DNA from: a virus
Taxonomy: Duplodnaviria; Caudoviricetes
Direction: 5' to 3' (one strand)
DNA: 64,000 nt
Virus record (IMG/VR): IMGVR_UViG_3300027852_000032
Span: 72,910-136,909 of that record
Shown: positions 1 through 42,946 of the stretch, piece after piece
Layout: each line of letters begins with the position of its first letter
Numbering within the stretch: position 1 is the first letter of the stretch
Program-made: the position numbers and the translations under genes
The notes under the pieces: generated by a model
Databases searched by the model: none
Told to the model about the DNA's origin: nothing
What the model saw: only the letters and a program-made list of their open reading frames with translations

Positions 1-280
1 AGATAATGATCCTGCTTTGAACAGGAATGATCTCAGCTTTCTTTGCAGCATCCCCCCACCCATTTCTGCTCGCTAATTCTCCTAAATCACGGGTAAAATT
101 TCTCCCCACCTTCAGGGTATACCGCAAGTTAGACCCCAGATTATTCCAGTCTTGTCTCCAACCTAAGTCACTATATTTATCAAGAAAAGCTCTATTTGCA
201 ACACCTTTCCCTTTAACAGAACTCATGAAGGGGACAATATTTTTATAATACGCCATCACTACTTCTTCTAATTTTTCCAT
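1..280 (-). CDS. 5' part of a hypothetical protein (diverged second copy of 62460..63158), running off the window edge
   Basis: ATG at 280 reads MEKLEEVVMAYYKNIVPFMSSVKGKG, versus MENLREVVVAYYKNIVPFMSSVKGKG at 63158. Confidence 0.8.
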   Translation of the reverse strand, partial: MEKLEEVVMAYYKNIVPFMSSVKGKGVANRAFLDKYSDLGWRQDWNNLGSNLRYTLKVGRNFTRDLGELASRNGWGDAAKKAEIIPVQSRIII

Positions 281-9214: not shown

Positions 9215-9308
9215 TTGCCCCCCCCCTTTTTAAATACCCCTGAGAAACGCTCTCTATGGCCTTGCGGGCTGTTTAAAGTTTTCCGAAGGTATTCGTTCGT
9301 CTTTTTGT

Positions 9309-11879
9309 TTATACGCTGACTAACGACTGAATAAACCCTTTATTGAAAGAAAGAGCATTTTTAATCGCTTTTTTCCCATTAGAAGAGGCGAGATAAGCTC
9401 CGATCAATTGCGGGTCAACTATATTTGCGATATGAACTTCGTTTATAGGCACCTCTTCCTTCTGATCTTTTTGTTCCCCCATAATTAATGTGTTTTTAGG
9501 AATAACAGTTTCCCCTTTTTCTAATATTGCAGGAAACTCATTATTAGATAAACCTTTATGAAGCCGAGGGGCTTCTGCAAAAATAGACGGAGAGACCATC
9601 TTTTTAACTCTCCCGAAACCAGAACCAACGACCCCTCCCGCATGACCAACTGCTGTTGATGTACCTGCCGCCGCTGCTCCTCCTCCGCCACCACCAAAAC
9701 TACTCATTAACGTAGATATCCCTTTTTGAATCGCCATCTTTGTTACCATTTTGGCAAACTCTCTTCCGATTTCGGAAAAACTGACTTTTGATTCCCAAAG
9801 CATATCGTTTAAAGTATCAACAAAAGTGTTTCCCCATCCGCTAAACATTTCGCCCATTTCATCTGACCAAGTTGATGTCTCTTTTAATTGATCTTTCATA
9901 TACTTCTTATAGCTTTCATCAATTTTAGCCATTTCAGCAATATAGACTTCAGTAAATCTTTTGATCACTTCTTCATCGCCTTCGTACTTGTCCTCGAACA
10001 TTTTTTTCTCTTGTTGCAATGTATATCTTCTTGCATCAAATGGACCTTTAATCGCTGCAATCTCTCTTAATTTTAATGAGTCCATTATTCGGATTCTTTC
10101 TTTATGTTCCCCGTCAACAATTTGCGCCAAGCTTTTTTGGAGATTAATTCTTTCTTTTAGTCTGATTTCTCCTGTTGTTTTGTATATTCCTGATTCTTTC
10201 CCATAAGAAGCGGCTAATTTCCCTAATCTTTGATTAGTCTCCCAGTCAAAAAAATCGAGTCTTTCCATTGTTAATTCTTTTAATTTGGCGTTTAACTCGA
10301 TTTCCATTTCTTTTCTTTTTCTAATAGCCGTGTCGCTATCAGGCGCAGAATCAAAAGAACTTAAAACATCATCAACCACTGAAGAAGATTCCTTCATTCT
10401 TTTTTCTATGTTCGGGTCGCCTGTAATGGTAACTTTTTTATGGTAGTTTTCATCTGATGCTGCGGATATCAGTTCATCAACAAGGCTGTTATGAACCGAC
10501 ATCGTTTCTTTCAGTTCTTCTTTTAATCTAATTTGAGCTTCCCGGAAAGTCTCTTCTCCTTCTTTAATAGAGCTCCGCAATTCATCAGCATCAAATCTTA
10601 CTTTTTCTGATACTTTGTCCATTAAAGGGACATGGGATAAGGAAGTCGATACCATATCAAGAAAATCAGATAACTCCTCTTTCATTTTCCTGATAGTTCC
10701 TTTCCAACTGGTTTCAATCGCCGCCCAAACAACCTTGACCCCGTGTTCCAAATAATAGAATCCTTTAAGGGTACCATCTACCAAAGCAACACCCGCAAGT
10801 CTTGCTGTTTCAAATTGATCGGATAATTGCTTTCCTATCTGCCACCCTGCAAAAAGAGCAAAAAGACTTGCCGCTGCTTTAGCCGTCATTGAGAGGTTCC
10901 CATTGAAAATAACGAGTTGGGCGTTTGCCGCCATGATCGCTGTTTTTGTTAATTGAAATAGCTTAGGAAGAGCATAGAGCCCTCCCCCGACCGCTACAAT
11001 TTTAATTAACGCCCCTGTCCATTTGACCAAACTTACTATTTCTTCTTTATTTTTTCGGAAATAGGCGACAAGGTCTCGAGCAGTAACAAGCGTATCTCTT
11101 GCAACAGGAAGAAATTCGTTCCCTATTTCATTTCTAAGATCTTCCCATTTTGCCTTTGTATCTTTCAAAACATTCGCGAAAGACATACTTGTTCTCGCCA
11201 AATCCCCTATAGCGTCCCCAGACCCATCAACCATTATTGTATATGCCGCCAAAGCTTTGTGAGCATAAGACAAATCTCTTTTATGATCGACCAATCCCAT
11301 GTTCAATGCCTTTTGCTCTACCGTAGTAGCCGTAAGCATAACACCATATTTTTTCATCGTCTCATAATTACCTACAAGACCTGACTGGATATCTTCCATC
11401 ACTTTTTGAGTAGAAAAATTATTAAAAGAGCCTAAATCTGCGGCTAACTTAACAATTTCTTTTGATAGACCTGCGGCAGCTTTTCGATTTAACCCCATAG
11501 GGACAAGAAGATCCTGGATGTTGCCTAAATATTTCTTTGCTTCTGTTTCTGACATAGCAAAATCAGCTTGAAGATCTTTGACCCAATTAGTCGTATTCGC
11601 TACATCCCGAAAAACAGTCTCAAACTTTCCTGTAGCCTCTTCTAAATCAGAGGCACTTTGAACTAAATCCCACGACGCTCTTGTAATTTGAGTGAAAACA
11701 GCAGCGCTGACCAAAGCTGTAAAAGCACGACCTAAAGTATTGGTCGCTTTAGTCACTTTCTTCATATCTTTTTCAGCATTGTCAGTAAAACCATCAACGG
11801 CTTTGTTTGCCCTTTTTAACCCTGAAGTGTCCACCCCTATATGCGCAAGCAGGGTTCCGACATCTAATGTTTCACTCAT
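9309..11879 (-). CDS. Tail tape measure protein
   Basis: 856 aa helical Ala/Leu-rich protein; LAADLGSFNN, C-terminal HAGGVVG..PRLH..EFPAILEKGETVIP motif. Confidence 0.92.
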   Translation of the reverse strand: MSETLDVGTLLAHIGVDTSGLKRANKAVDGFTDNAEKDMKKVTKATNTLGRAFTALVSAAVFTQITRASWDLVQSASDLEEATGKFETVFRDVANTTNWVKDLQADFAMSETEAKKYLGNIQDLLVPMGLNRKAAAGLSKEIVKLAADLGSFNNFSTQKVMEDIQSGLVGNYETMKKYGVMLTATTVEQKALNMGLVDHKRDLSYAHKALAAYTIMVDGSGDAIGDLARTSMSFANVLKDTKAKWEDLRNEIGNEFLPVARDTLVTARDLVAYFRKNKEEIVSLVKWTGALIKIVAVGGGLYALPKLFQLTKTAIMAANAQLVIFNGNLSMTAKAAASLFALFAGWQIGKQLSDQFETARLAGVALVDGTLKGFYYLEHGVKVVWAAIETSWKGTIRKMKEELSDFLDMVSTSLSHVPLMDKVSEKVRFDADELRSSIKEGEETFREAQIRLKEELKETMSVHNSLVDELISAASDENYHKKVTITGDPNIEKRMKESSSVVDDVLSSFDSAPDSDTAIRKRKEMEIELNAKLKELTMERLDFFDWETNQRLGKLAASYGKESGIYKTTGEIRLKERINLQKSLAQIVDGEHKERIRIMDSLKLREIAAIKGPFDARRYTLQQEKKMFEDKYEGDEEVIKRFTEVYIAEMAKIDESYKKYMKDQLKETSTWSDEMGEMFSGWGNTFVDTLNDMLWESKVSFSEIGREFAKMVTKMAIQKGISTLMSSFGGGGGGAAAAGTSTAVGHAGGVVGSGFGRVKKMVSPSIFAEAPRLHKGLSNNEFPAILEKGETVIPKNTLIMGEQKDQKEEVPINEVHIANIVDPQLIGAYLASSNGKKAIKNALSFNKGFIQSLVSV

Positions 11880-11885
11880 TTGGGA

Positions 11886-12197
11886 TTATCCTTTTTTTAA
11901 TTTCTTCTTTTTTCTGGGCTTGACAATTAATCTGCCTTTAAACGCTTTCTCTAAACTTTTTTTAATTTGGTCTGTTGTTTGTTTTTCTTTTTTCACCTGA
12001 TCAAACCCGATTGTGAAGTCAGGGGCTGAATATTGCCGTGTCCCTTTTTTCGAGAATACATTAGCCAAAAAAGAGATCACTCTACCGATTTGAAGATTTT
12101 GAATTATCATCCCGAAGGGTTCGACCTCAGAATAAGCTACCCAATCAGTCAATTGTCGGCTGGTTAAGTTTAGATAATCGGGATGCCTTATGCCCAA
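11886..12197 (-). CDS. Tail assembly chaperone, C-terminal (gpGT-like) part reached by -1 frameshift
   Basis: The -1 frame is open from the A7 run at 12245-12251 (IRAQRITRFKFRLSLALGIRHPD...); W.AY..VEPFG motif. Confidence 0.8.
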   Translation of the reverse strand: MGIRHPDYLNLTSRQLTDWVAYSEVEPFGMIIQNLQIGRVISFLANVFSKKGTRQYSAPDFTIGFDQVKKEKQTTDQIKKSLEKAFKGRLIVKPRKKKKLKKG

Positions 12198-12251
12198 CGC
12201 AAGAGAAAGTCTAAACTTAAATCTGGTTATGCGTTGGGCTCTGATTTTTTT
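12192..12251 (-). promoter_or_regulatory. Programmed -1 ribosomal frameshift signal (A AAA AAA plus 10-bp stem)
   Basis: mRNA GUA AAA AAA UCAGA then GCCCAACGCA...UGCGUUGGGC perfect stem (arms 12230-12239 and 12192-12201). Confidence 0.8.
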
Positions 12252-12607
12252 ACTAACGCTTTGACTTCATCCTCCCCTAAGCCACTCAATCTTTTTGCAA
12301 CCCTGTACATTTCAACCATCATTCGCCCTGATATTTTTCCAATAGCCTGAGCATCCTCTAAAGAGAATATTTTGTTTCCTTCTCCATCAACGCAACTCAA
12401 CGCCAGTGTTTTAGCCCTCAGATTCTTAAGATTAATTTTATCCCCCTGGACAACACTTAATTCAAGAGTATCTCGGTCATCAACCGTAAGTTCCTGAATA
12501 ATAACTTCTCCCTCTAACCCATAAGGGGTACAATCAAAATTTTCCTGCACTAATTCTTTGGTTAAAATTTGCTCTTTGGTTAAAAGCATCGTTACCCTCC
12601 TGTACAT
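12227..12607 (-). CDS. Tail assembly chaperone (gpG-like)
   Basis: LLTKEQIL start, V.IQELT..DRD, SCVDGEGNKIF; lies between tail tube and tape measure genes. Confidence 0.85.
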   Translation of the reverse strand: MYRRVTMLLTKEQILTKELVQENFDCTPYGLEGEVIIQELTVDDRDTLELSVVQGDKINLKNLRAKTLALSCVDGEGNKIFSLEDAQAIGKISGRMMVEMYRVAKRLSGLGEDEVKALVKKSEPNA

Positions 12608-12658
12608 GAACTTTTTAAAATTATTCTAAAAAAATAAGATCTTTATCATCTTGTTTTA

Positions 12659-13087
12659 TTACGACGTCATTACGACCTGTCCTGTAATCTTGATTGATAC
12701 AGATGCTGTAACTTTATCATCCATAGGAATAGCCATACTCAGCCCTGTTACATACCCTGTAAAATCAAACTGAGTAGCCCCTGTATCGGGAAGAACGATT
12801 CTGTATTCAACAGAAGAATCAGATTCAAAATCATCGTTCAAATCATCATAACCATCACGGGTAAAATTCATTTCCAAAGAAACCTCCCCCGCATCACGAA
12901 AACTGGCGATAAACTCTTTGTACCCACCTACACTATCTAAGCTTGTGACGTCGATTGTTCCTCGAGTTTTATTTGGGCCGCTTATTGAGTTCACCTCGGC
13001 GATAGTCTCAAAAACACTTCCTGCTGAGGATGACGCCCCTGTCGCCCTTCTGAATGTTGTTCCTACCCCACTAAAAGCGTTACTCAT
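12659..13087 (-). CDS. Major tail tube protein
   Basis: IAEVNSISGP..TRGTIDVTSLDS.GGYKEFIASFRDAGEVS; ends IKITG. Confidence 0.92.
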   Translation of the reverse strand: MSNAFSGVGTTFRRATGASSSAGSVFETIAEVNSISGPNKTRGTIDVTSLDSVGGYKEFIASFRDAGEVSLEMNFTRDGYDDLNDDFESDSSVEYRIVLPDTGATQFDFTGYVTGLSMAIPMDDKVTASVSIKITGQVVMTS

Positions 13088-13117
13088 GGTATCCCCTCCT
13101 TTCCTTTTTATTTCTTT

Positions 13118-13513
13118 TTATTGGGTTCTATGTATCCGGACATTAACTGTAAACTCAGGTCTATCTTTTTTATCATATCCTGCAAAAAAGATATCTGACA
13201 TCAGCCAAATTCCAATATATCTTGCACCGTTTATTGTTTTATTATGAATCCCCCTTAAATATTCTTTAGCGTTTTCAATTAATGAATAAGCCTCCCTATA
13301 CCCATTTTGGTTTCCTCTAACACGCATTTGAATAGTAGGCCTATCGTACTTATAATTTGCTTGTGGGGCATATCCCCCAGTGTCGTAAAGAGTTAAACAT
13401 AAATCGGGGGTATCTGGTTGCTTAAAGCAAAAAAGATTAACTTTAAACTCTAACTCCGTGACACTGGGGGACTCAATCAAAATATCCTTTATGTCTTGTG
13501 AAGGGGCATTCAT
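13118..13513 (-). CDS. Tail terminator / minor capsid-type protein
   Basis: PD.PD.CLTLYDTGG, PTIQMRVRG, D..DRPEFTVN motifs; position. Confidence 0.8.
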   Translation of the reverse strand: MNAPSQDIKDILIESPSVTELEFKVNLFCFKQPDTPDLCLTLYDTGGYAPQANYKYDRPTIQMRVRGNQNGYREAYSLIENAKEYLRGIHNKTINGARYIGIWLMSDIFFAGYDKKDRPEFTVNVRIHRTQ

Positions 13514-13545
13514 TGTTACTCCTTATTTCACCTTATCTACCCTTG

Positions 13546-13908
13546 TTAAATTTTAACTTTTTTCTGAAACTCACCACCAAGTATTGATGCGGCTTCCTTT
13601 AAAGGGGTCTCTAAAAATTTTGCTTGAGCTCCTGGTTTTCTAAAGTTCGCCTCTACCATCTCATGTACATAAGGAGCATAATTAGCGGTGAGCCCAATTT
13701 CCGCAAATATTTTATCTTTTTTCTGTTGCAAAATTGGTCCGTACCAACTATTGATAAGATTGCCCGTATCACCTACAGGGGTCAGTCTCGTTCCTTTTTC
13801 TCTTACGGCTACCCCTACTTCCGTCAACATTTTTTTTGATTTTATAATGAAATTATCAACAGCTTTATCAACCCTTTTTTTGACTTCTTCTTTACCTTTT
13901 AATTTCAT
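13546..13908 (-). CDS. HK97 gp10-like tail completion protein
   Basis: TPVGDTGNLINS, YAPYVHE, AKFLE motifs. Confidence 0.85.
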   Translation of the reverse strand: MKLKGKEEVKKRVDKAVDNFIIKSKKMLTEVGVAVREKGTRLTPVGDTGNLINSWYGPILQQKKDKIFAEIGLTANYAPYVHEMVEANFRKPGAQAKFLETPLKEAASILGGEFQKKVKI

Positions 13909-13936
13909 TATAATTTACCCTTTTTAGCTGCGTGTT

Positions 13937-14302
13937 TTAGCTGCGTGCACTTGAAAGAAACGCGCTCGAAAAAAACTGATTCCCCTTTATGTTTGGTATT
14001 TTTTCAACTTTTTTAATCTCGTAAGCGTTATGCTCAAGAGAGGGATCGTCTCCACATTCAGAGGAAGAAAGATCATCTAATGTTCCTAAAAATAAATAAC
14101 CCCCCGCGTTTAATTCTTGATCTGAAAAAATTGAAGAATCTGAAAGAACTTCGTTACCGTCGGCATTAGTAAACCAATCAATTTTATCTTCCCATCTAAC
14201 GTCAATTTCTATGCCTGGGGTAAAAGCTTTTCCCCCGTACCCATCATCTTCAGCGGAAGCCCAATATACTGCTTTTTGATTTAAGAGTCTTTTTATTTTC
14301 AT
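13937..14302 (-). CDS. Head closure / stopper protein
   Basis: QKAVYW...DGYGG...EIDVRWED; position in neck module. Confidence 0.75.
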   Translation of the reverse strand: MKIKRLLNQKAVYWASAEDDGYGGKAFTPGIEIDVRWEDKIDWFTNADGNEVLSDSSIFSDQELNAGGYLFLGTLDDLSSSECGDDPSLEHNAYEIKKVEKIPNIKGNQFFSSAFLSSARS

Positions 14303-14305
14303 AAT

Positions 14306-14677
14306 TTAAGTATCCCTAAAATCATCTACTTTAATAACCACTCTTTTTTTCCCCAATTGGGACAATGTTCCAGAAGTATCAAGCAATAATACTTGCTGCC
14401 CAAACGAAGTGCCTTCAAGCCCTTTCCCCATTACAGAGGATTCATAATGGGTGCTCGCCGCGCCAATTGATTCTGATTTAATTTTTGGGTCCCTTATGGC
14501 TACCAAATGAGCAGCCATCCACCTTTCAATTTCCTTTAAAAGGGGCTCTCCTAAGTTTTTATCACTCAATTTTTGGTCAACAATCAAATGAGCAGCAGAT
14601 ATAAAAGGGAACAAATTTGTTAAATCAGTATCGATAATTGCCTGGACATCATCAGCCCTTACTCTTTCATTTGCCAT
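14306..14677 (-). CDS. Head-tail adaptor protein
   Basis: IERWMAAHL, SESIG, GTSFGQQ..LLDTSG motifs. Confidence 0.8.
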   Translation of the reverse strand: MANERVRADDVQAIIDTDLTNLFPFISAAHLIVDQKLSDKNLGEPLLKEIERWMAAHLVAIRDPKIKSESIGAASTHYESSVMGKGLEGTSFGQQVLLLDTSGTLSQLGKKRVVIKVDDFRDT

Positions 14678-15386
14678 GCCTTTTCCTCTTACTCAGCCAT
14701 TTTCTCCATAATCCGGGGTCAACAAAATCATTGGCTTTTTCTAAATCCCATTCAAGCCCAAGGTTATTGATCACTATTTGCATTTCGCTAAAATCACCCT
14801 GAACCATTCTTTGTGGCCAGACTTCTTGAATGTTTAACTTTTCATCAACCATGTCCTCGAACCGTTTTTCATGCTCCGCCACCCAACTTATCCAGCCTGA
14901 CCTTTTTTTATGAGCCCTCATGAATGATGTTCGAAGACAGCTATTAACAATATCTTCCGTTTCTCTTCGAACAATAACCCACTTAGCCCCGGGGAAAGCT
15001 TTATGCCAAATTTGCCATATAAGACACATCTTCGCACCTTTATAGAACCAAACACCTCCTTTATAACCTTCTTTGCTCATTATTTCCTGGACTTGACCCC
15101 TCCATTTATTACAAAAGGTACTTGTAAACTTTTCAATATCTTTTGTATCGGGAAGAGGAAATTGCCCCAATGGGTCGCAATTAATACTTTTTAGGAAAGG
15201 TTTGACTAATTGATTTCTAATACTTAAATTCTCAAACATTCCTTTTGAGTTATATTTATTGGGACCAGATAAACCTCCTCCAAAAACCCCTCCAACCGAA
15301 TGGATTAACCCTGCCGTCATCGACGTTCCTGAACGGGCACATCCGGTGATCAAAATAGGTTGTTCCATTTTACCCCTCACCCTCAC
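14667..15386 (-). CDS. Sulfotransferase-family protein
   Basis: 5'-PSB loop ILITGCARSGTS, N..G.FE, FPGAKWVIVRR...IVNS (3'-PB-like). Confidence 0.8.
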   Translation of the reverse strand: MRVRGKMEQPILITGCARSGTSMTAGLIHSVGGVFGGGLSGPNKYNSKGMFENLSIRNQLVKPFLKSINCDPLGQFPLPDTKDIEKFTSTFCNKWRGQVQEIMSKEGYKGGVWFYKGAKMCLIWQIWHKAFPGAKWVIVRRETEDIVNSCLRTSFMRAHKKRSGWISWVAEHEKRFEDMVDEKLNIQEVWPQRMVQGDFSEMQIVINNLGLEWDLEKANDFVDPGLWRKWLSKRKRHGK

Positions 15387-16023
15387 CCCACCATGTTTTT
15401 ATCCAAGGCGCGGTTGCTTCGCTCGGCCTTGGTCTGCCATGAAACATGATTATTTTTGCATCATCCGGCAAACTATTTCTGCAATGGTACTTATAAGAAT
15501 AAATACCGGGAACAACATCCTGAATAACCCTTATATCTACTTCTTTTCTGATTAACCAGTCAGATGAGTAAGCCTGCTCCCCTCCTTTTTTAAATTTTAT
15601 CATGTTCTTATCTGGAGCTCTACGAAAATCATGATAAATGCCGGTCCAGTCTCCACTCCAAACCATAACCCCTGAACTCCATTTTACTCCTCTCGCCAGA
15701 GCCCTCTTTTGAGGGCGGCACATATAAAAAGAGTCAAGGGGGCAATCAGAGGCTAATTTCTCTAAAGGGGCCAAAGATGAAGTAATAATAGTATCTAGCC
15801 CTGTCGCAATGACCGGACCTGTGATACGAAACATTTCTATTATTGACCACCACCCCTTCCAATTATGCCTCAAAGGATAATATCCAGGAACTTGAGGATC
15901 GTCCGACAAACAGACGAAATCTACATCTCGAGAAGAATGGCGTTCGACCATCTCTTTCATTCTCTCAACATAATTCGCATCATAATCTCCTCCTGTTTTA
16001 AGGACAACAAGGAAAGTTATCAT
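15370..16023 (-). CDS. Glycosyltransferase (GT-A, GT8-like)
   Basis: VLKTGGDY...YVERM, FVCLSD, GWW, GLDTII, SSGVMVW, G.EQAY, IIMFHGRPRP. Confidence 0.8.
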   Translation of the reverse strand: MITFLVVLKTGGDYDANYVERMKEMVERHSSRDVDFVCLSDDPQVPGYYPLRHNWKGWWSIIEMFRITGPVIATGLDTIITSSLAPLEKLASDCPLDSFYMCRPQKRALARGVKWSSGVMVWSGDWTGIYHDFRRAPDKNMIKFKKGGEQAYSSDWLIRKEVDIRVIQDVVPGIYSYKYHCRNSLPDDAKIIMFHGRPRPSEATAPWIKTWWGEGEG

Positions 16024-16508
16024 AACCTCTCCTCTTCAGGAACAAAGCCCATAAACCTTGCAGGAGCCCCAATATACTTCCCATAAGGAACTGTATTTCT
16101 GGTTACAACCGACCCCGCACCAATAAAAGATTCTCTTCTTATTTCGACCCCAGGCAAAACCAAGACCCCTATCGCTAATCTTGCCCCGTACCTAATGATA
16201 GGGGCTTTTTTATTAAAAGAGACTTTATCTCGACGTAAATGAACCATCCTTCTATCGTTCGCCCCAATATAACCGGGGGCGATGAAAACTTTATCTTCTA
16301 TTATCGTTCCCGCGGTTATATGACATTGAGCATGGATTAAACAGTCATCCCCTATTTTACAATCGCCCTCAAATACGGTTAAATGGCCGACAACTGTATT
16401 TTTTCCAATGATTGTTCTTTTTTTCAATACGCAATAATTACCAAGATAAGTCTTATCTCCTATCTTACACCCTTTTTCTATTACGACTCCAACACCGCAC
16501 CTATACAT
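16020..16508 (-). CDS. Hexapeptide-repeat (LbH) acyl/acetyltransferase
   Basis: IG.. hexapeptide repeats; ANDR, VLPGVEI...FIGAGSVVTR...GAPAR. Confidence 0.9.
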   Translation of the reverse strand: MYRCGVGVVIEKGCKIGDKTYLGNYCVLKKRTIIGKNTVVGHLTVFEGDCKIGDDCLIHAQCHITAGTIIEDKVFIAPGYIGANDRRMVHLRRDKVSFNKKAPIIRYGARLAIGVLVLPGVEIRRESFIGAGSVVTRNTVPYGKYIGAPARFMGFVPEEERL

Positions 16509-17223
16509 AGTTTAAAGCCTCCTCTGGTGTCATTATTGGAAAAACTTTAAGCGCCGAATTTGGCGTTGCGTTGATAATTTCCAAGCCCATAACCTTTGCA
16601 TCCCGGGCAATTGCTGGAAAAGGGACAAGGAATCTTTCATAAGGATTTTTCAATGGGCTGGGATGATCATTATGCCAATTAGGCTCATTGTTTACTCTTC
16701 TCATATCAAACCCCAAAAGAATAATTTTTTTCGCCCCTAAATGATAAGCCATGTTGATGGCAGATGCCCCAGAGCTTCTGTTCCAGGCGACAAACCGAGG
16801 GCGATTATCAATTCCTTGTGGTTTTCCTTTACATACCCCGTAGATGCCATCTTTCTTATGAAGTTTCTCTCTGCAACACGCGATCATTCCGGGGAAATCC
16901 CTAAGCCATTTTCTATGCCACCCAAACCATCGCTCATCTCCAAACCAACACAAATCAACCCATATGCGGGGGATATAATGGGTAGTCTCTTCCCCGGACC
17001 GGTCCTTCACCGGAGAACCGTAAGCGTTGTTAACTCCGATGACTCTAAATTTATGAAAAGGAGTTAAATCAACATCATTTAAAGAGGGACCACCCCCAAG
17101 AATTATACAGGTTTGCCCTCTCCAAATATCAATTACTTTCCACGCTTTATTCGACTGCGTCTTGGTCCTCATCTTCTGTTTCATCTTCTGTTTCATCTTT
17201 TTTTGTTTGATTTTCCAAAACAA
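16501..17223 (-). CDS. DUF115/Maf-like (sialyltransferase-type fold) glycosyltransferase
   Basis: CIILGGGPSL, IGVNNA, SSGASAINMAYHLGAKKIILLGFDM, IINATPNSAL.VFP. Confidence 0.75.
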   Translation of the reverse strand: MFWKIKQKKMKQKMKQKMRTKTQSNKAWKVIDIWRGQTCIILGGGPSLNDVDLTPFHKFRVIGVNNAYGSPVKDRSGEETTHYIPRIWVDLCWFGDERWFGWHRKWLRDFPGMIACCREKLHKKDGIYGVCKGKPQGIDNRPRFVAWNRSSGASAINMAYHLGAKKIILLGFDMRRVNNEPNWHNDHPSPLKNPYERFLVPFPAIARDAKVMGLEIINATPNSALKVFPIMTPEEALNYV

Positions 17224-17512
17224 GGTCGTCCGCTTCCTTAGAGGTCAATAATCGATCATTAATTGGAGATTCTGTTTCCATGTTAATGACATTATACTTG
17301 CCCCCGCCTTTATGCTCTTTTTTTAAGCGAGTAACGACCCAACGCAAAGGTTCTGGAGGCGGGGTATTGAGGACTTCGACCCGATGGGACATCCATTTTA
17401 TTTTGGAAAGGAGCTCCTCGAATATCTCCCCTTTCTTAATTACTTTTTCCCCGCATCGATGCCTTCCTGACAATAACTTAAACCGAATTTTTCTTTCTTT
17501 AGGGTTGAACAT
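17147..17512 (-). CDS. Hypothetical protein downstream of major capsid
   Basis: 121 aa ORF with RBS (GAGGAAAGGA) and acidic tail. Confidence 0.6.
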   Translation of the reverse strand: MFNPKERKIRFKLLSGRHRCGEKVIKKGEIFEELLSKIKWMSHRVEVLNTPPPEPLRWVVTRLKKEHKGGGKYNVINMETESPINDRLLTSKEADDLVLENQTKKDETEDETEDEDQDAVE

Positions 17513-17569
17513 ATTTTTCCTTTCCTCTTTGGTTAAAAGGTTAAAAGGCTAAGAGGTTAAAAAATAGAA

Positions 17570-18589
17570 TTACTCAGAATAGATGGCGATTCCACAATCA
17601 TCTTCCTGAGACTTTCTTGGCTGCGGAAGGATAATACACATAACCTTAAAGTTTTTCTTCAGACCACCTTCGCTGTCCCATTCAACAACTGTTACCTGAA
17701 GGCCGATTATCATTCGGATTACATCAGCAGTCAACTGAACCATTGCCACTTTATCAGAGCTCATTTTATCAGCTACCTGAATGAAGTCAATATTGGAAAT
17801 CTGATCTAATCTTTCCCGTATAGTCTTGGGATAATTAGAGACGTAATCTTCATCAAGCTTTGTTTCATAAGCAGTAGGGAGCCAAAGACCATAAGGACCG
17901 AAATGATGAGAATCAATCAACGCTTGTTTCATATTAACAATATCATCAACAATATTTGCGCCGGTTGTACCTGAAGCGTCCCAATGCCCATTTAAAGAGC
18001 CTGAGTTCACATTCGGAAAGTCTTCAATTCCTCTTATTGTACCACCTCCAAAACTGTACCCGTTATATCCCCGAAAGAATATCTGCTCTACCATTTCAGA
18101 TACTTTTCGGGCGGACATTTCTGCCATAGTAGTATCAAGGGGCATGTTCCCATTACGAGAGGCTGCGATTTCACGTATACTGAAGGAAAAATCTTTATGA
18201 ATAACAGGTAAAGGCATATACCCGATATCGTACTCAGGGCGGTCTCTGCGGCCTTTAGCAAGGGCATCCATATTGACCTCAGCGTCCTCGACGTCAGACA
18301 TATTCTGCCATGACAGCACAGTTTTACCCAATCCGTCAGGAATGTTATATGTTAACCCTCTACCAATCAGCTGCTGAACGGCGACTAATCTATCTTGCGC
18401 CGCCTTCAGAACCACTCGATCAACCTCTTTCCATTCATCGTAAAGTAAGGTGTCATTTGTCCGGAGGGAATTTACGTTGAAATTGGATTTCAATAATTTT
18501 TCCGCCACATCCCCTGTACTCTTGATGTTACCTCCATCAAAAGATAAAACGTCAATGTTAGCTGGAGTTCCCTGTTTAGTTCTGTCCAT
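17570..18589 (-). CDS. Major capsid protein (HK97 fold, linocin M18/encapsulin-like)
   Basis: 339 aa; PLPVIHKDFSFSIREIAASR, PLDTTMAE, FGPYGLWLP; follows decoration and protease genes. Confidence 0.88.
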   Translation of the reverse strand: MDRTKQGTPANIDVLSFDGGNIKSTGDVAEKLLKSNFNVNSLRTNDTLLYDEWKEVDRVVLKAAQDRLVAVQQLIGRGLTYNIPDGLGKTVLSWQNMSDVEDAEVNMDALAKGRRDRPEYDIGYMPLPVIHKDFSFSIREIAASRNGNMPLDTTMAEMSARKVSEMVEQIFFRGYNGYSFGGGTIRGIEDFPNVNSGSLNGHWDASGTTGANIVDDIVNMKQALIDSHHFGPYGLWLPTAYETKLDEDYVSNYPKTIRERLDQISNIDFIQVADKMSSDKVAMVQLTADVIRMIIGLQVTVVEWDSEGGLKKNFKVMCIILPQPRKSQEDDCGIAIYSE

Positions 18590-18666
18590 TTTTTTGCAAT
18601 CCTTCTTTTTTTAATAACATTAAATAACCGAAAACTTAGTCAAAAACTTAATATCCAGTTTCAATA

Positions 18667-19134
18667 TTAAATGACTTCAACTTTAATCGCTGTTGCAGAA
18701 TCTGAAGACGTAGACAAGTCGAGGGCTTCAAGCGCCTGAGCAACAATAGATCCAACGACGACATCCGCAACGGAAACTTCCGCATCAACCTTGCGTAAAG
18801 TACCATCTCCCTGACTTTCCAGATAATCCCCTACTGCAACACTTTCTCCCTGTGCCAATATTGCAGCAACCTCATCTCCTGGCCCGCAAACAACGAACTG
18901 GACCCTGCTGTTGATAGCGTAATTGTCCACAACACTATTCCCCTGCATTGAATCCTCTATGGCAAAAATAGCAGCCGCAGGGCCACCAGCAGTAGCGTGA
19001 ATCTTAACATTTCCAGCAGTGCTGCTCCGCTGAACCAAATGGCCGGGATAAATAGTCGCCGCCTCAGCTTTTCCTTCTTTTGGGATTGGCTCTCCTTCTC
19101 TCCCTGATTTTAAGAAAATAGTTCTAATCGCCAT
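18667..19134 (-). CDS. Capsid decoration/cement protein
   Basis: 155 aa Ala/Gly-rich; IYPGHLV, GDYLES.GDGTLR; directly upstream of the major capsid gene. Confidence 0.75.
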   Translation of the reverse strand: MAIRTIFLKSGREGEPIPKEGKAEAATIYPGHLVQRSSTAGNVKIHATAGGPAAAIFAIEDSMQGNSVVDNYAINSRVQFVVCGPGDEVAAILAQGESVAVGDYLESQGDGTLRKVDAEVSVADVVVGSIVAQALEALDLSTSSDSATAIKVEVI

Positions 19135-19217
19135 CTTTTACCTCCATCAAAATTATTTAATTTTAAACTACTTTAAACTACTTTAAACCACTTTAAACTA
19201 CTTTGGATTACTTTAAT

Positions 19218-20954
19218 TTACTCTTTAACTGACCCTTCCATTGCCGTGATCATACTCGGCATGTCTGGGACACCTTTTCCCTCTTCAGTTCTTTCATTTC
19301 TTTTAAAAGACTGATTTGAAAGGTTGCCTCCTCTTCCTAAATAATCAAGTACAGGAGCGACAGGGGAATTCATTCCCGCCAGATTGACCAACTGTTCCAA
19401 TTCAGTAATTTCTTTGGCTGCTAACTGATCTTTAGTAAAAGGGCAGGCCTCGTTTTTTGTTAGTACCCCTATCAAATCCTCTTTCTTTCTGTTTCTCATT
19501 ATCAGCCCTTCCCGGAGCATCTCTCCAATCTCCACGGGAGCATTTGCAATAAAATTTTCGGCAGAATTTTCGGCAGAATTTCCGGCATTACCATTGGTAT
19601 TATCATCAGCGTTTGTAGTATCAAGGTTTTTGTCGCCTTTTGTCCCGGTTTTCTGATTGGCCTCAAGATCGGCAATTGTTTTCTGAAAACTGGCAGTAGT
19701 TCTTTCATTAATTTTTGAAACGGTATCAAAAGTTGAATCATCAAGGCCGATCAGAAATTCACGGTCGGTTTCCTGGAAAGTTGATCCCTCATTGGAAATC
19801 AAAGCATCAATTTTTTCTTTTTTCTTATTCATCGTTGGTGTACCCCCTTCATTTGTTTTTTGTTTACTTGATTGTTTACTTGATTGTTTATTTGCTTCTT
19901 TATTTGCAGCGGCTACAAATTGCCTTTGTTCCCGGACTTCAGAAGGTGACCCCTTTGGAACTGCAACCTCATCTTTTATCTCAAAGTTCTGTTTGAATAA
20001 TTTGGTACCTTGCCCTTCTCCCCTCGCCTCATAAACGAAGTAATTCTCCTCCGTATAAACCGCAACTATATAGTGATAAGTTCCTGACTGAGGTTGTCCC
20101 TGAGTATCAAGCTGATCAACTTTAAGCTGCAATTGATCCCTTATCTCTCTATCGGAAACCCCATTATCAGTCAGCCGATTGCCAAAGAAACTTGCCAAAC
20201 TGGCAAGGCGTCGTGTTACCCAACTTTTCTTGGCTGGATCACCAAGACAGGTAATGAGGTCCTCCCCTGTTTTTTTCGCATCCTCTATTGTCAAAATTTT
20301 CGGCATCGCTCCCTCTCCCCCTTTATTTTCTTTTTGTTGTTCTTTTTTATTGAGTCTAACTCCGCAACCATCTTCCCAACTGCAAGCACCTTGTTGCCCC
20401 GGCAATAACGCTAAATGATCAGGAACAATATGTCTTACAACCCCTTCATAATTCTCTTCTTGCCATACACCTGAAGAATCATCATCATCTGAATAGAGAC
20501 CTGTTGAAACGTCCATATTAATATTACCCGATTGCAAATCACTAATTATTCCCTCATGGATTTTCTCTGCTTTCTGGATATCTATCCATGCTTCCGCCCT
20601 CAACCTCCCTTGGTCATCAACTGTAGTATTATATATTCTTCCGGCGTTATACCTTTCAATTATTTCAGGAGAATTACAAGAAACAGGGTCACCATTATCA
20701 TCTGTAGGGTGAATGATAGGGACAGGCATCCCATTCCATGCTTGATAATTAGCGGAGAACTCTTCTTTGAGGTAAAGTTTCGGTCCGTCTGATCCACTAT
20801 GGACACCTTCCACCATCATAATAACAGGGACGACCAAATGATTGCGACCTTCGTGAATTTCCGTTCTTGAAACAGCGCTACTCACTTTAAATTTGATTCC
20901 ATGTATTTTCATCTTCACCCTCTTTATTACACTTGCACAGGAATTGCTACGCAC
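19218..20954 (-). CDS. Prohead protease (DUF2213-like) with scaffold extension
   Basis: VEGV, HP, DVSTG, PDHLALLP..GACSW.DGCG motifs; long charged C-terminal region. Confidence 0.85.
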   Translation of the reverse strand: MRSNSCASVIKRVKMKIHGIKFKVSSAVSRTEIHEGRNHLVVPVIMMVEGVHSGSDGPKLYLKEEFSANYQAWNGMPVPIIHPTDDNGDPVSCNSPEIIERYNAGRIYNTTVDDQGRLRAEAWIDIQKAEKIHEGIISDLQSGNINMDVSTGLYSDDDDSSGVWQEENYEGVVRHIVPDHLALLPGQQGACSWEDGCGVRLNKKEQQKENKGGEGAMPKILTIEDAKKTGEDLITCLGDPAKKSWVTRRLASLASFFGNRLTDNGVSDREIRDQLQLKVDQLDTQGQPQSGTYHYIVAVYTEENYFVYEARGEGQGTKLFKQNFEIKDEVAVPKGSPSEVREQRQFVAAANKEANKQSSKQSSKQKTNEGGTPTMNKKKEKIDALISNEGSTFQETDREFLIGLDDSTFDTVSKINERTTASFQKTIADLEANQKTGTKGDKNLDTTNADDNTNGNAGNSAENSAENFIANAPVEIGEMLREGLIMRNRKKEDLIGVLTKNEACPFTKDQLAAKEITELEQLVNLAGMNSPVAPVLDYLGRGGNLSNQSFKRNERTEEGKGVPDMPSMITAMEGSVKE

Positions 20955-21907
20955 CTACAATTTGGATGGCGAGGAATCATTCCCTCTATCTCTTCAAGCG
21001 TAAAAGTTTGCCCTGCAAGACCTGCACAAATTGGACAAACGTTAAATCCCGCGGTTCCCCATTCAACTTTGACCTTGACTCCTTGTACACCCCATTGCCT
21101 AAATTCGTTTATATTTGCTACATGATGGGCACGAATAACTTCTGTTCTTGCCATTGTTTTCGCCCTATTTATTGCTCTCATCCCGCTTGCCGCTTCTGTT
21201 CCATTCTCCTCAAAAACATCGCTTAAAGTTCGGGCGATAACTAAAGGGCTTTTTCCTTCCATCAATCCTTGCGATAGAATTCTACTGATTTGTTGATCCA
21301 TTATTTGATCAATGCCCTTTAGCTCGCTAAAAGTCCGAGTATATAATACCCCTATTCTATCAGCATGCATTGGTTGATTCATCACAGCTGAGATGGCAAG
21401 GTTATCATCTGGTTCCAGCGCAGGAATAGAGGAGTCATTTTTCCTTAATTCTTGCCTACCCCTAAGTATTCCTTTTTGATAAGCTGCATGAACCCATATA
21501 TCTGTCCATGCTTCTTCAAAACCCCGTAATGCTCCCGGCCTTCTGGTTATTTCTAAAACCCCTCTTTCTTCTTGTTCATTCAACCAATCCATAAACTTTT
21601 CGATTTTGGTTGAGGTACGGGGGAAAGCGAATTGATCTGGCTCTGCTAAAACAGGGTCAGATAATGTTAAGATTCGGCTCCTAAAAGGGGTTTCTTCTGT
21701 TAACCCAAAACAATCATTATCAACTATACTCACCTTTATGGCGGTTCTTAGTTTTTTGAATCGTGAAGAACAAGCTCGAGCAAAACCGTTTCTTATTTGG
21801 GTCGTTTTAGTAGGGTCTCTTCTAAACGCAAGATTCAAAAAAGGATGTTTTCTTTCTACCCCTTCATTTAAGTTTACGACTTGTCGGGAACAATTACAAG
21901 AACTCAT
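20927..21907 (-). CDS. Head morphogenesis protein (Mu gpF / SPP1 gp7 family)
   Basis: RAKTMARTE, VCPIC, IPRHPNCRC. Confidence 0.92.
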   Translation of the reverse strand: MSSCNCSRQVVNLNEGVERKHPFLNLAFRRDPTKTTQIRNGFARACSSRFKKLRTAIKVSIVDNDCFGLTEETPFRSRILTLSDPVLAEPDQFAFPRTSTKIEKFMDWLNEQEERGVLEITRRPGALRGFEEAWTDIWVHAAYQKGILRGRQELRKNDSSIPALEPDDNLAISAVMNQPMHADRIGVLYTRTFSELKGIDQIMDQQISRILSQGLMEGKSPLVIARTLSDVFEENGTEAASGMRAINRAKTMARTEVIRAHHVANINEFRQWGVQGVKVKVEWGTAGFNVCPICAGLAGQTFTLEEIEGMIPRHPNCRCVAIPVQV

Positions 21908-21909: not shown

Positions 21910-23376
21910 TTACCCCTCTCCCCCAGGAATAGGGGCCATAGGGATTTGTGTTTGCCTCAATCTTTGCTCCCTTATCAACTCCTCTTCCTCTTTAATTGAT
22001 AGCTCATCGATATAGCCTTCCAGTATTGTTTCAATTTCCTGAATTCTATCATCATCATACTCAAGGAAATCACGTAAAAAGATTTCAGGAGGAATAATCT
22101 CATCAGCTCCTTGAGCATTCACATATTTCGATAGCGCATCCGTTTTTTTAACCGCCGTTTCTGCTCTATCTTTTTCCCCAGGGGTAAATAGACTCGGCCA
22201 AGTAATACTATATCCTTCCTCGCTCGGGGGAGTCAGTACCCCTACATCTATCAACTTATCAACAAACCTTCGTAAAATCATAGGCTCGGCATAATTTTCC
22301 CTTCTTTCATCAACTCTTGAGTTCCAATTAGTCTCATCTTGACTACTGGCTAACTCCCCTCTTTCTGACCCCTCTAAAATTCTTTTTGGGATACCTGTTG
22401 TTGCAGAGATCAAAGTTAATTGGACATCCACATGATCTTTTGGGGAAGAGACTTGAGGGGAAAGGGTCTGGACATCTAAACCCTGAGTCCTTATGAACCT
22501 CTGTAGCCCATGCACATAACTATCAATTTGATTTTTTAAATCATCTGTATCGACTGTTTCAACATCCGCCTCAGAATCGATCTTGAAGTTAAAACCGGGC
22601 AACGCTCCCCTCCAAAACATTTCCCCTGAACCACCGGCCACTGTTTCAAGATCCTGAAGCCGATTAAGGATAGCCTCTAATCTTGGGGTACCATATACAT
22701 CGTTTTCATCTGTATCTTCGGCAAGATGAAGAATTCTCGAATGATGGACATTAATCGTTTGGGTACCTGTCCTTTTAAAGTTACGCATCGTGACCTGGTA
22801 TATGTCAGGAAGCCCGTATCTTTCTGACTGGGGGTTAACGTCCCATGCCTGGATTCTAACGTACTTCTCGGAGTAAGGCATTAAGAATAATAATTTCCGT
22901 TCCGCTCCTTGTGTCGGGGCAATAACTTCCTCTGATAAGTTCTCCGCTCCATCATTCAGCCCTAATAGCAAAATACCGAACCTTCCTATCCCAGATATTC
23001 TGTCCGCTCTCGAAAGATAATGATAAATATGCTTATCTTTTACCAATAAAGCCCATTCTTTTTCGAACGGAGTATCTATTTTTTTCACGTCTCCTTTTAA
23101 TTCTGAGAGGGTAGGTTGTAGCCTCCATGTTGCGTCAACAGGCGCCTTTATGATTCTTTTTCCAATATCCCCCCTTTTATACCTTACCCAATAATCATCA
23201 AAAACAGGATTTTTAATGTAGCCCAAAGCATTGTAGATGTCTCGTTTGGCTGTTCCTGTTCTTTCACTATACCATGATCTTCCTAAACGATCAGAAAAAG
23301 CTCTGCCAAGAAGTTCATTAACAGCGTTGTTGATCATTCTCGAATTTTTAAAATCTATCTTTTTTGTATCAGCCAT
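21910..23376 (-). CDS. Portal protein (DUF1073-like)
   Basis: 488 aa after terminase; RYGLPDIY, VHHSRILH, ATTGIPKRIL.G. Confidence 0.88.
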   Translation of the reverse strand: MADTKKIDFKNSRMINNAVNELLGRAFSDRLGRSWYSERTGTAKRDIYNALGYIKNPVFDDYWVRYKRGDIGKRIIKAPVDATWRLQPTLSELKGDVKKIDTPFEKEWALLVKDKHIYHYLSRADRISGIGRFGILLLGLNDGAENLSEEVIAPTQGAERKLLFLMPYSEKYVRIQAWDVNPQSERYGLPDIYQVTMRNFKRTGTQTINVHHSRILHLAEDTDENDVYGTPRLEAILNRLQDLETVAGGSGEMFWRGALPGFNFKIDSEADVETVDTDDLKNQIDSYVHGLQRFIRTQGLDVQTLSPQVSSPKDHVDVQLTLISATTGIPKRILEGSERGELASSQDETNWNSRVDERRENYAEPMILRRFVDKLIDVGVLTPPSEEGYSITWPSLFTPGEKDRAETAVKKTDALSKYVNAQGADEIIPPEIFLRDFLEYDDDRIQEIETILEGYIDELSIKEEEELIREQRLRQTQIPMAPIPGGEG

Positions 23377-23382: not shown

Positions 23383-24903
23383 TTACCAAGTCCCCGCTCT
23401 CTTTTTCTTCCCTTTTACATTTAGATAATTAAAAGCGCCAGAAGCACTATCCCATTGATCCTGAAAAGCTCCCGCTGGTGCGATTTCATGTTCATCAATA
23501 AATGCTTGTGTCCACTCTCCTATAACGACTTCTACTAATTTGTTCTCAATAAAAGATTGATAAGGCTCCGATCTGCTGATTTTATTTGTTGTTGCGGGAT
23601 CTCTTTTAGCTACATGCCCAATCAAGCCTCTAACTGTATTTTCCGCACTCTCTTTTCCTCCTGACCCACCTTCTTGCTCCACTACTACATGAACCCTCAA
23701 GTCCTTCCACCTTTGATCATCAAGTTCAGCTGTTTGTTTGATAATGTTTTCCCTCTTTCCTGCTGACCATTGACCCTTTCGACAGTCACAAATTCTAACA
23801 CAACCTGATTTCATCTTCACCATCAATGTTCCCGCGGTTCTTTTACCCCCTCCTTCCGTTCCCGCTTTATCCCAATATCTGACGGCTTTCGTTATCAAGT
23901 TACGGTGGGGGATCTCATTAACTAATTGAAAATGATCAATCTTAAATATGTTTCCCCCTCTGGAGGCCGGTCTTTGTTGTAATTGCCCGGCCTGGGCATG
24001 TTTTGTCATTTCTGACTCTAAAGTGCTAAGTGCTTTATCATGATATAGCCCCGGCCACAGGGGGTCGTTATCTTCTTTTCTCCAATCTTTTTTTAATAGA
24101 GGTGTACTAACGGGTGTTGGATGGGACTTCTCAAACCTTGCGGGCAAACATAGATGAACATAATCTATATCTTTCGCCAGTACATGCCCTGATAAATCCC
24201 TTTCGTGTATTCTTTGCATCACAATAACCTTCGCAGATTTTTCAGGATGATTAACTCGGGTACTCATGGACTCATCCCACCAACGCAAAGTCATCAACCT
24301 ATCTAACTCGCTTTCCCCTTTAATAACATTATGGGGATCATCAACGGTAATTCTATCTCCTCCTTCTCCTGTGCCTACACCTCTAATTGAAGTAGATAAA
24401 CGATAACCATGATTATCATTCTCAAACCTTGTCTTTTGATTTTGATCCCCTGCTATCTTAAAACGATGCCCCCATCTACTTTGGTACCAAGTTGACTGGA
24501 TCAACCTTCTACACTTGAGGGAATCTCGTGTAGAAAGAGTTTCTGCGTAAGATGAACAAAGCCACCGAGTATGGGGCATATTCATTGGTCCCCATTCCCA
24601 AGTCGGCCACATTACACTCACTAAAAGGGACTTCATATGTCGAGGGGGAAGGTTAATAAGTAAACGGGTAATTTGCCCTTTTGTGACAGCCTCTAAATGT
24701 TCACAAAGACAATCAATATGATACCCATCAATAAAAGGCGTATTGGGCTCGAGTATTTCCCAAGCTTGTTTAGTGTAATGTTTTAACCGTTTTTCCGCCA
24801 GGAGCATATCCGCTCCCATCCCCTGCATTATCAACTCCTTTATCAACTCCGTCTCTGTCACTTGTGGGATCAACTGCCTTTCGCATGATTCTTGATAACG
24901 CAA
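23383..24903 (-). CDS. terL: Terminase large subunit
   Basis: LLINLPPRHMKS Walker A, GEGGD.ITVDDPH Walker B, MQR.H..D, QQRP, nuclease YWDKA and DQWD. Confidence 0.95.
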   Translation of the reverse strand: MRYQESCERQLIPQVTETELIKELIMQGMGADMLLAEKRLKHYTKQAWEILEPNTPFIDGYHIDCLCEHLEAVTKGQITRLLINLPPRHMKSLLVSVMWPTWEWGPMNMPHTRWLCSSYAETLSTRDSLKCRRLIQSTWYQSRWGHRFKIAGDQNQKTRFENDNHGYRLSTSIRGVGTGEGGDRITVDDPHNVIKGESELDRLMTLRWWDESMSTRVNHPEKSAKVIVMQRIHERDLSGHVLAKDIDYVHLCLPARFEKSHPTPVSTPLLKKDWRKEDNDPLWPGLYHDKALSTLESEMTKHAQAGQLQQRPASRGGNIFKIDHFQLVNEIPHRNLITKAVRYWDKAGTEGGGKRTAGTLMVKMKSGCVRICDCRKGQWSAGKRENIIKQTAELDDQRWKDLRVHVVVEQEGGSGGKESAENTVRGLIGHVAKRDPATTNKISRSEPYQSFIENKLVEVVIGEWTQAFIDEHEIAPAGAFQDQWDSASGAFNYLNVKGKKKRAGTW

Positions 24904-42375: not shown

Positions 42376-42383
42376 TTTAACTC

Positions 42384-42941: not shown

Positions 42942-42946
42942 TGTTT

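Follow-up and report, generated by a model that had tools for sequence, protein, structure and literature searches.

We analysed positions 72,910-136,909 of the IMG/VR virus record IMGVR_UViG_3300027852_000032, a stretch of 64,000 nt from an uncultured tailed phage, referred to below as the window. Between its major capsid gene and its putative head-tail adaptor gene lies an island of four enzyme genes, preceded by a conserved small gene. The enzymes, named g1 to g4 in gene order, are a single-domain transferase resembling Maf and the GT42 enzyme Cst-II, a left-handed beta-helix (LbH) sugar acetyltransferase, a GT8-like retaining GT-A glycosyltransferase, and a sulfotransferase of the type that uses 3'-phosphoadenosine-5'-phosphosulfate (PAPS). 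This arrangement recurs far beyond chance, both in all 80 loci collected around the sulfotransferase and in loci collected around the capsid gene. On balance, and with modest confidence, we favour the reading that the cassette modifies at least one particle protein, most likely a head protein, by late cytoplasmic glycosylation/sulfation. The wider proposal, that a large uncultured siphophage clade together with scattered cultured carriers builds a sulfated acidic glycan of the 3-deoxy-D-manno-oct-2-ulosonic acid (Kdo) type on its head proteins, is put forward tentatively, as something we consider possible and a little short of probable.

Composition and turnover of the island

The genes of the head region form a single, tightly packed series, all of them oriented along the minus strand. 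The major capsid gene (17570-18589) bounds the island upstream and the adaptor gene (14306-14677) bounds it downstream. On this strand g1 occupies 16501-17223, g2 16020-16508, g3 15370-16023, and g4 14667-15386; as called, the open reading frames (ORFs) of the four genes overlap by 8, 4, and 17 nt in order. The g1 ORF also overlaps that of p121, a 121-aa post-capsid protein (17147-17512, minus strand), and the g4 ORF overlaps the adaptor gene by 11 nt. Alignment A3 of the g1 homologs indicates that the true start of g1 is likely the ATG at 17172, and g4 likely starts at the ATG at 15368, matching the 233-aa form found in databases. With these starts, the overlap between p121 and g1 shrinks to 26 nt and that between g3 and g4 disappears. 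A reading of the letters alone (the sequence-only reading) had placed four overlapping genes between capsid and adaptor, within the late structural operon. Its coordinates are correct and the operon placement holds, the genes being co-oriented with those from terminase through tail; the four-gene cassette is to be enlarged, however, as p121 should be counted in.

The p121 gene has a good ribosome-binding site. Its product carries the motif H-x-G-G-G-x-Y-[ND]-V-[IV]-N ... G-K-x-[IV]-N (alignment A2) and a variable acidic linker or tail, and its homologs always sit between the capsid gene and g1; p121 belongs to the module. It had no match in Pfam, PHROG, NCBIfam, or PADLOC, and in the ESM Atlas it matched viral hypothetical clusters only, with a model of low confidence. 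Beside the g1 homologs of P1, PMG1, phiNP, XacN1, CcrColossus, and the Euryhalocaulis prophage, no p121 homolog was found.

The capsid type is present in at least 583 related IMG/VR contigs. A search anchored on this protein is blind to the enzymes, and its counts refer to 42 evaluable loci. All 42 contained g1, while p121 was found in 39, the sulfotransferase in 37, g3 in 35, and the LbH gene, an optional component of the island, in 14. The smallest islands consist of p121, g1, and the sulfotransferase, or of g1 alone. A survey of positional conservation, which had been suggested along with the sequence-only reading, placed the sulfotransferase between capsid and neck genes in every one of the 80 loci anchored on it; an adaptor homolog lies just downstream in 77 of these.

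The gene content between the ends of the island turns over rapidly. A set of 48 different islands contributes 318 ORFs, which group into 93 families with 58 singletons among them, and at 70-80% capsid identity the mean Jaccard similarity of the island families is 0.44; that is, under half are held in common. The variable middle genes encode GT2, GT-D, GT9-like, and DXD transferases, several methyltransferases, an epimerase/dehydratase, a short-chain dehydrogenase/reductase (SDR), a Zn-dehydrogenase, a split transketolase, radical SAM (S-adenosylmethionine)/B12 enzymes, extra sulfotransferases, and a formyltransferase adjoining a DegT aminotransferase. Judged by these family assignments, they are what a locus that tailors sugar nucleotides and assembles glycans typically contains. 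The 48 islands yielded no flippase, polymerase, lipid-carrier transferase, or other membrane protein. Many islands encode large proteins of 500-830 aa in which the GT8-like domain is one of several fused domains (methyltransferase, GT9-like, and GT8-like; e.g., L012:5590-8004), and the 805-aa protein of locus L012 recalls chlorovirus enzymes that build capsid glycans. Some relatives (L008 at 9242-14297, L007, L027, and L073) have about 5 kb of additional DNA inserted after the adaptor gene, ahead of the neck gene that comes next; the ORFs in L008 encode 704 and 417 aa.

A scan for promoter-like and terminator-like sites around the cassette returned them at chance level only, and no tRNA gene was found within the window. 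We considered whether the cassette could be a moron with its own expression signals, and rejected this because the genes overlap, such signals are missing, and the island is fixed across the lineage.

Predicted enzymes and their donors

The labels given to the enzymes in the sequence-only reading (Maf/DUF115-like, LbH, GT8-like with a GLD motif, and sulfotransferase) all hold. Its remark that none has an obvious membrane anchor is confirmed as well: no membrane segment was detected in g1-g4, the highest 19-residue Kyte-Doolittle mean being at most 1.39 in all four. Single-sequence phmmer searches of the PDB returned nothing for g1, g3, and g4, an NCBIfam scan of the cassette proteins gave weak LbH matches only, none reaching its cut-off, and PADLOC found no defence-family match for any of them.

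The g1 protein matches phrog_4603 (6.5e-33). Its AlphaFold model, made from 31 homologs, has a pLDDT of 93.1, and the best Foldseek match to this model is the Maf structure 5mu5 (E 4e-5, TMq 0.60). In VIA comparisons, 196 residues aligned to 5mu5 residues 243-513 with a Z score of 15.2 and a root-mean-square deviation of 4.2; the Z scores for Cst-I, Cst-II, and MptE were 12.7, 12.3, and 10.2, respectively. The family profile made from A3 recovered the Cst-II sequence with an E value of 4.5e-5. In this alignment IIGGGPSL stands over IAGNGPSL, and SG.SAINLA..LGAK.I.LLGFD stands over SGVYMCAVAIALGYKEIYLSGID, so that the GGGPS, N, and SG..A...A..LG...I.L.G.D motifs are paired. Residues D79 and D156 and the S-G-x-S-A motif of g1 are invariant in the 31 homologs; Maf activity needs E324, D415, and a conserved Ser (bioRxiv 10.1101/2020.06.03.131540). 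The g1 proteins are 223-240 aa long, and the central domain of 5mu5 is the only part to which the chain aligns, over its entire length, with no flanking domains. As modelled, g1 is a Maf- or Cst-II-like catalytic domain and not a full Maf.

These relatives bear on the sugar donor. The Campylobacter jejuni enzymes Cst-I and Cst-II (CAZy GT42) have the same domain size as g1 and an aligned nucleotide-binding motif, and Maf enzymes, which O-glycosylate Ser/Thr of flagellin, can use cytidine monophosphate (CMP)-activated Kdo (bioRxiv 10.1101/2020.06.03.131540). The donor of g1 is probably a CMP-ulosonic acid such as CMP-Kdo, or a nonulosonic acid; a Kdo-type donor would be likely for g1, whereas that of Cst-II is sialic acid. 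The two differ also in that in our alignment the catalytic His188 of Cst-II lies opposite no conserved residue of the g1 family, which has its own conserved N-W-H. We also considered g1 as a pterin pyrophosphokinase like MptE, which is less likely given a Z score of 10.2 and a profile E value of 0.074, against a Z score of 15.2 for Maf and a Z score of 12.3 and E value of 4.5e-5 for Cst-II.

A search with PF02348 found a cytidylyltransferase between terminase and portal in two related genomes. This KdsB/KpsU homolog (L176:10082-10810 and L177:6263-6991) overlaps both of its neighbours, the terminase large subunit and portal genes, and all 13 of its PDB matches were CMP-Kdo synthetases (best 1.4e-48). 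With phmmer, KdsB homologs were found in the terminase-portal region of 10 of 79 capsid-anchored loci. Their presence there fits a g1 that depends on a CMP-sugar.

The g4 protein matches PF13469 (Sulfotransfer_3) over residues 10-213 (1.3e-6; 29.3 bits against a cut-off of 27). The PAPS-binding residues, which the sequence-only reading had marked for checking, are in place: the 5'-phosphosulfate loop, G-[CA]-A-R-S-G-T-S, and the 3'-phosphate motif, V-R-R..D/E-I..S-C, are invariant in 37 homologs, as are residues G15, A17, R18, S19, G20, T21, S22, R140, R141, and S149. This sulfotransferase family is largely virus-specific. A tblastn search with g4 of 50,697 isolate phage genomes gave no match, while metagenomes hold more than 1000 homologs. 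An alignment-based scan detected 305 related IMG/VR contigs, where a single-sequence pattern scan had found none. A library of 1.84 billion proteins contains 415 clusters of the family at E<=1e-30, and the nearest Atlas clusters are mostly viral. Among 185,579 species genomes the family occurs at 7 loci, and every examined locus with recognisable neighbours is prophage-like.

The neighbourhood of the sulfotransferase gene in relatives also speaks to its donor. An adenosine-5'-phosphosulfate (APS) kinase gene adjoins it in 19 related loci (phmmer), and in loci L028, L024, and L050 the kinase directly beside it matches PF01583 with E values of 6e-20, 5.8e-18, and 5.9e-18, respectively; the sulfotransferase therefore appears to use PAPS. 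Together, the predicted APS kinase and KdsB neighbours back the transfer of a CMP-activated acidic sugar followed by PAPS-dependent sulfation. Neither an APS kinase gene nor a KdsB homolog was found in the record that contains the window, and the host would therefore supply PAPS and CMP-Kdo. Of the decoration chemistry in the sequence-only reading, the enzymes for sulfation and acetylation are present, and the likely CMP-ulosonic acid donor is an addition to it.

The early region of the window contains a gene of the PAPS-reductase family (PP-loop; 53358-53978, plus strand; PF01507 2.4e-13) with weak similarity to QueC/DndC, and a 70%-identical copy is present in the other phage of the record described below (record 40306-40856). 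A tie between this gene and the sulfotransferase is possible but unsupported.

The g3 protein matches phrog_1962, annotated as glycosyltransferase (3e-28), and the P1 protein PmgQ (tblastn, 4e-13); no Pfam family was matched at E<=0.1, and hence not Glyco_transf_8. Its AlphaFold model (pLDDT 95.7) aligns in VIA with glycogenin (Z 16.3), LgtC (16.2), and GlyE (16.1), with about 198 of 217 residues aligned, and with A64R of PBCV-1 (13.9); the best Foldseek match is the metal-independent BoGT6a. The GLD that had been noted in place of DxD is real. Most homologs have D-L-D at this site, and only the second Asp, D77, is invariant; a C-terminal F-H-G-x-P-R-P is also conserved. The fold is common to the cytoplasmic protein-glycan transferases glycogenin, GlyE, and Skp1 AgtA, and also to A64R, a capsid glycosyltransferase of PBCV-1.

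The g2 protein has four Hexapep stretches (7.7e-22). Its best solved relatives are the WxcM-like 4mzu (3e-17), the N-acetyltransferase 7s43 (1e-16), QdtC (2e-12), and WlbB (1e-10); the match to the NeuD/PglB/VioB subfamily of NCBIfam (6e-17) is far under the cut-off of that subfamily. Since the enzymes most similar to g2 N-acetylate amino sugars linked to a nucleotide, g2 may tailor the donor sugar. The class of enzyme thus agrees with the sequence-only reading, but the acylation of a finished glycan that went with it does not follow, since donor-sugar tailoring may be the role of g2.

Candidate targets of the proposed modification

From the observed enzyme folds, gene order, and gene turnover we infer a route whose donors, order of steps, and acceptor are to be read as conditional. 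The g1 enzyme would move an acidic sugar, probably from host CMP-Kdo or a related ulosonic/nonulosonic acid, to the acceptor. Then g3 would add another sugar from a uridine diphosphate (UDP)-sugar, g2 would N- or O-acetylate a sugar or its nucleotide-linked precursor, and g4 would add sulfate from host PAPS. Because g4 and g1 are constant and the genes between them vary, the acceptor of g4 is probably a conserved part of the structure. Virions would thereby acquire a glycan coat that is strongly anionic and varies between strains, and its role would be one of shielding, charge, or adhesion.

The sequence-only reading had proposed the phage's own particle as the target, and the comparative evidence points to it. 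A head protein in particular is favoured by the position of the genes, their late co-transcription, the lack of export machinery, and the presence of a separate 7-deazaguanine cluster for DNA modification. The KdsB homologs within the head operon of relatives speak for the particle as well, as do the pairing of g1 with the sulfotransferase in a prophage and the places that g1 homologs occupy in cultured phages (see below). The genes of the head region, all on the minus strand, encode the terminase large subunit (23383-24903), the portal (21910-23376), a MuF-like protein (20927-21907), the scaffold (19218-20954), a head decoration protein (18667-19134; phrog_766 3.8e-10), and the major capsid protein, which has the HK97 fold and is DUF6260/Linocin-like (PF19774 7e-23, PF04454 5e-13, phrog_771, phrog_264). 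The adaptor beyond the island is a DUF4054 protein (phrog_37884 1.6e-11, phrog_302; PF13262 1.2e-4, below the cut-off), and neck, tail-tube, and tape-measure genes lie beyond it. Among the head proteins, the decoration protein offers a weak lead to an acceptor. Its C-terminal loop D-[ML]-S-x-S-S is rich in Ser: in 78 homologs S141 is conserved in 95%, S143 in 91%, and S144 in 75%, and a few have a Thr-rich variant. The corresponding loop in the Brevundimonas phage vB_BpoS-MaInes, which lacks the island, reads D-N-S-G-G-A-T. A tblastn search with the decoration protein of the 50,697 isolate phage genomes gave no match.

Several points weigh against a modified virion protein. The match of g1 to PF01973 (8e-7) stays under the gathering cut-off (29.4 bits against 34.6) and covers residues 151-175 alone. 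A full Maf has about 630 aa, with N- and C-terminal domains, whereas g1 has about 220 aa and corresponds to the central domain only. In size g1 equals Cst-II, which acts on a sugar of lipooligosaccharide and not on protein. The lead to the decoration protein comes from one loop and a single comparison, with one relative that has no island. The sequence-only reading had spoken of many Ser/Thr-rich virion proteins as available acceptors; this is true of the tail tube (24% Ser+Thr) and some distal tail proteins, but the capsid and decoration proteins, like the other head proteins, are average. That the genes sit in a late operon is no proof that a virion protein is the target, and the modification itself is a prediction from genes, for this phage and its relatives alike. 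The P1 genes pmgO and pmgQ, homologs of g1 and g3, were non-essential in CRISPR interference (CRISPRi) and knockout screens (PMC10695390), and phage kdsB and glycosyltransferase genes are usually read as host-surface modifiers (PMC12801897).

This last interpretation leads to the strongest of the alternatives, which we nevertheless regard as unlikely: that the enzymes work at the inner membrane, on its cytoplasmic side, and modify a glycoconjugate of the host envelope (e.g., lipopolysaccharide (LPS) core, lipooligosaccharide, or a capsule precursor), in the way that Cst-II sialylates lipooligosaccharide. Such a late surface change would block superinfection or keep progeny off debris. The single domain of g1, its size, and its sequence motifs are those expected from Cst-II; Kdo is a sugar of the LPS core, and KdsB is present in relatives; variable glycan loci are typical of surface polysaccharides; and the literature tends to interpret phage kdsB and glycosyltransferase genes as changing the host surface (PMC12801897; bioRxiv 10.64898/2026.09.14.751636). 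The genes, however, have no promoter of their own and sit inside the head operon, not at a lysogeny or moron site, and throughout the capsid lineage the island is a fixed feature. Moreover, none of the 48 islands encodes a membrane-associated enzyme, flippase, polymerase, or lipid-carrier enzyme, and with expression this late, newly made LPS would hardly have time to arrive at the surface.

The conservation of the sulfotransferase suggests a further alternative to a sulfated glycan. At 50-62% identity it is about as conserved as the capsid protein, and its neighbouring glycosyltransferases reach 23-49%, which would suit a constant acceptor; in addition, minimal islands hold g1 and the sulfotransferase only. 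The sulfotransferase might thus act directly on a side chain (Tyr, Ser, or Thr) of a virion or assembly protein, apart from any glycan, with the glycosyltransferases serving another modification. Tyrosine sulfotransferases are among the nearest solved matches of the g4 profile, but their E values of 0.13-0.2 are not significant, nor is that of SgdX2 (0.024), and we did not use these matches as evidence for protein sulfation; PF13469 also holds carbohydrate sulfotransferases. The sulfotransferase nearly always occurs with g1, and the overlapping pair of the two genes in another type of phage (see below) fits a shared product. We consider direct sulfation improbable.

Structurally, g1 is best matched by a flagellin glycosyltransferase, and g1 homologs occur in Caulobacter phages; both would agree with modification of a protein on the host surface, for instance flagellin or pilin, altering motility or barring competing phages. 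We hold this to be very improbable, as g1 is without the additional Maf domains, the sulfotransferase family is nearly confined to phages, and the head-operon position would go unexplained. Least weight of all goes to hypermodification of the phage DNA with sugar or sulfate around packaging: mom of phage Mu is a late DNA-modifying gene, but we know of no GT42/Maf-like enzyme or PAPS sulfotransferase that acts on DNA. Phage glycosyltransferases are best known from DNA modification (review PMC12619734), yet DNA is an unlikely target here because the phage has its own 7-deazaguanine genes in the replication module (40369-44611, minus strand; QueF 3e-28, QueC 1e-67, a radical-SAM QueE-like gene, and FolE, 1e-47, fused to an N-terminal extension), no enzyme that activates bases, such as a hydroxymethylase, is encoded near the cassette, and the sugar-nucleotide tailoring enzymes of the islands fit glycan synthesis.

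Cultured carriers and known systems

A nucleotide-level search with 14000-19200 of the window found no match among isolate phages, and our literature search found no paper that describes the island. The nearest cultured homologs of the cassette are pmgO, pmgP, and pmgQ of P1 (L002:5132-7690), whose products have no assigned function, and HdmD of P7, which is named with them. The g1 profile matched PmgO with an E value of 1e-28 and PmgP, a distant paralog of PmgO, with 8e-8; the g3 profile matched PmgQ with 3e-38. The same trio of a Maf-like pair and a PmgQ-type GT8-like enzyme is present in Citrobacter phage phiNP (L003:4858-6642), where the first Maf-like ORF (4858-5460) is unannotated, and in Xanthomonas phage XacN1 (L093:3002-5645). 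Like the cassette, the three P1 genes are part of a late operon, the "putative morphogenetic" one; they differ from it in having no sulfotransferase, LbH, or p121 gene and in not lying between capsid and adaptor.

The g1 homolog has other carriers as well. In the Pseudomonas phages PMG1 and D3 it lies between capsid and adaptor, and in the Caulobacter phage CcrColossus it follows the tail genes, together with further transferases. In a prophage of the isolate Euryhalocaulis caribicus, whose head module is of another kind, g1 and the sulfotransferase form a pair flanked by the portal and a DUF2213 protein, and the ends of the two genes overlap. The portal protein of this prophage (L088:5433-7328) ends in an Acb1 anti-CBASS phosphodiesterase domain (PF23474 2e-34). 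The cultured relative vB_BpoS-MaInes (ON529866.1 20250-39248, L178) has its head genes in the same order and a capsid protein with 41% identity, and between its capsid and adaptor genes no g1, sulfotransferase, or p121 was found. It could serve as a natural negative control, and pmgO/P/Q of P1, orf7 of the Pseudomonas phages D3/PMG1, CcrColossus, and the E. caribicus prophage provide handles in cultured systems.

The record from which the window was taken is itself unusual. Its 136,909 bp look like two phages in tandem, one from 1 to 74.5 kb with a GC content of about 0.43 and one from 74.5 to 137 kb with about 0.37. Terminase, portal, and capsid genes are present separately in each half, and a 6.4-kb block comes after each half in one copy. 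The copies (window 1-1122 and 57550-64000; record 67580-74031 and 130459-136909) are 89.7% identical, and their genes encode proteins of 498/507, 834, 304/308, 232, and 455 aa, the last with a beta-helix; these are probably tail-fibre or tailspike genes.

If head proteins are indeed modified in this way, an abundant environmental phage lineage wears a variable, negatively charged sugar coat. Virion glycosylation has been demonstrated for some mycobacteriophages only, and we found no report of phage sulfation; a sulfated glycoprotein capsid would be the first for a bacterial virus, and P1 pmgO/P/Q would gain a function. Such a coat would bear on sticking to surfaces, debris, and mucus, on escape from inactivation, and on the selection of viral glycan diversity. 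Phage kdsB, cysC-like, and glycosyltransferase genes, now read as "auxiliary metabolic" or as "host cell-wall modification", would have to be read anew. The Maf-like and sulfotransferase enzymes might also serve protein glyco-engineering.

Three known systems resemble the cassette in part. In mycobacteriophages, capsid and tail-tube proteins are modified by enzymes that the phage encodes (Freeman et al. 2023, Cell Host Microbe 31:1216, cited in PMC11600133). According to PMC11600133 and PMC12619734, phages Corndog, Che8, and Myrna use soluble glycosyltransferases and methyltransferases, encoded by tandem genes, on their own capsid and tail-tube subunits, which is how we picture the action of the cassette. 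The hosts there are actinobacteria, and the modification is proven, whereas here it is inferred from genes. In what these two sources cite, Maf/GT42-like enzymes, sulfotransferases, APS kinase, and KdsB go unmentioned; the cassette, for its part, keeps a fixed site between capsid and adaptor and has constant ends and a variable middle.

PBCV-1 builds the glycan of its major capsid protein with soluble, virus-encoded enzymes. Its A64R is structurally near g3, and it has multidomain transferase-methyltransferase proteins. It is, however, a eukaryotic giant virus with atypical N-linked glycans, no sulfation, and no Maf-like enzyme. The flagellin islands that contain Maf (Magnetospirillum, the source of 5mu5; Geobacillus; Clostridium) share with g1 the fold of the catalytic domain and apparently also the GGGPS, acidic, and Ser motifs, and like the islands described here they are variable. 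To our knowledge, pairing with a sulfotransferase is not part of these flagellin systems. In them Maf works in the cytoplasm on a structural protein, whose Ser/Thr residues receive nonulosonic acids, and also Kdo, from CMP-activated donors; the g1 system would differ in that the presumed acceptor is a protein of the phage.

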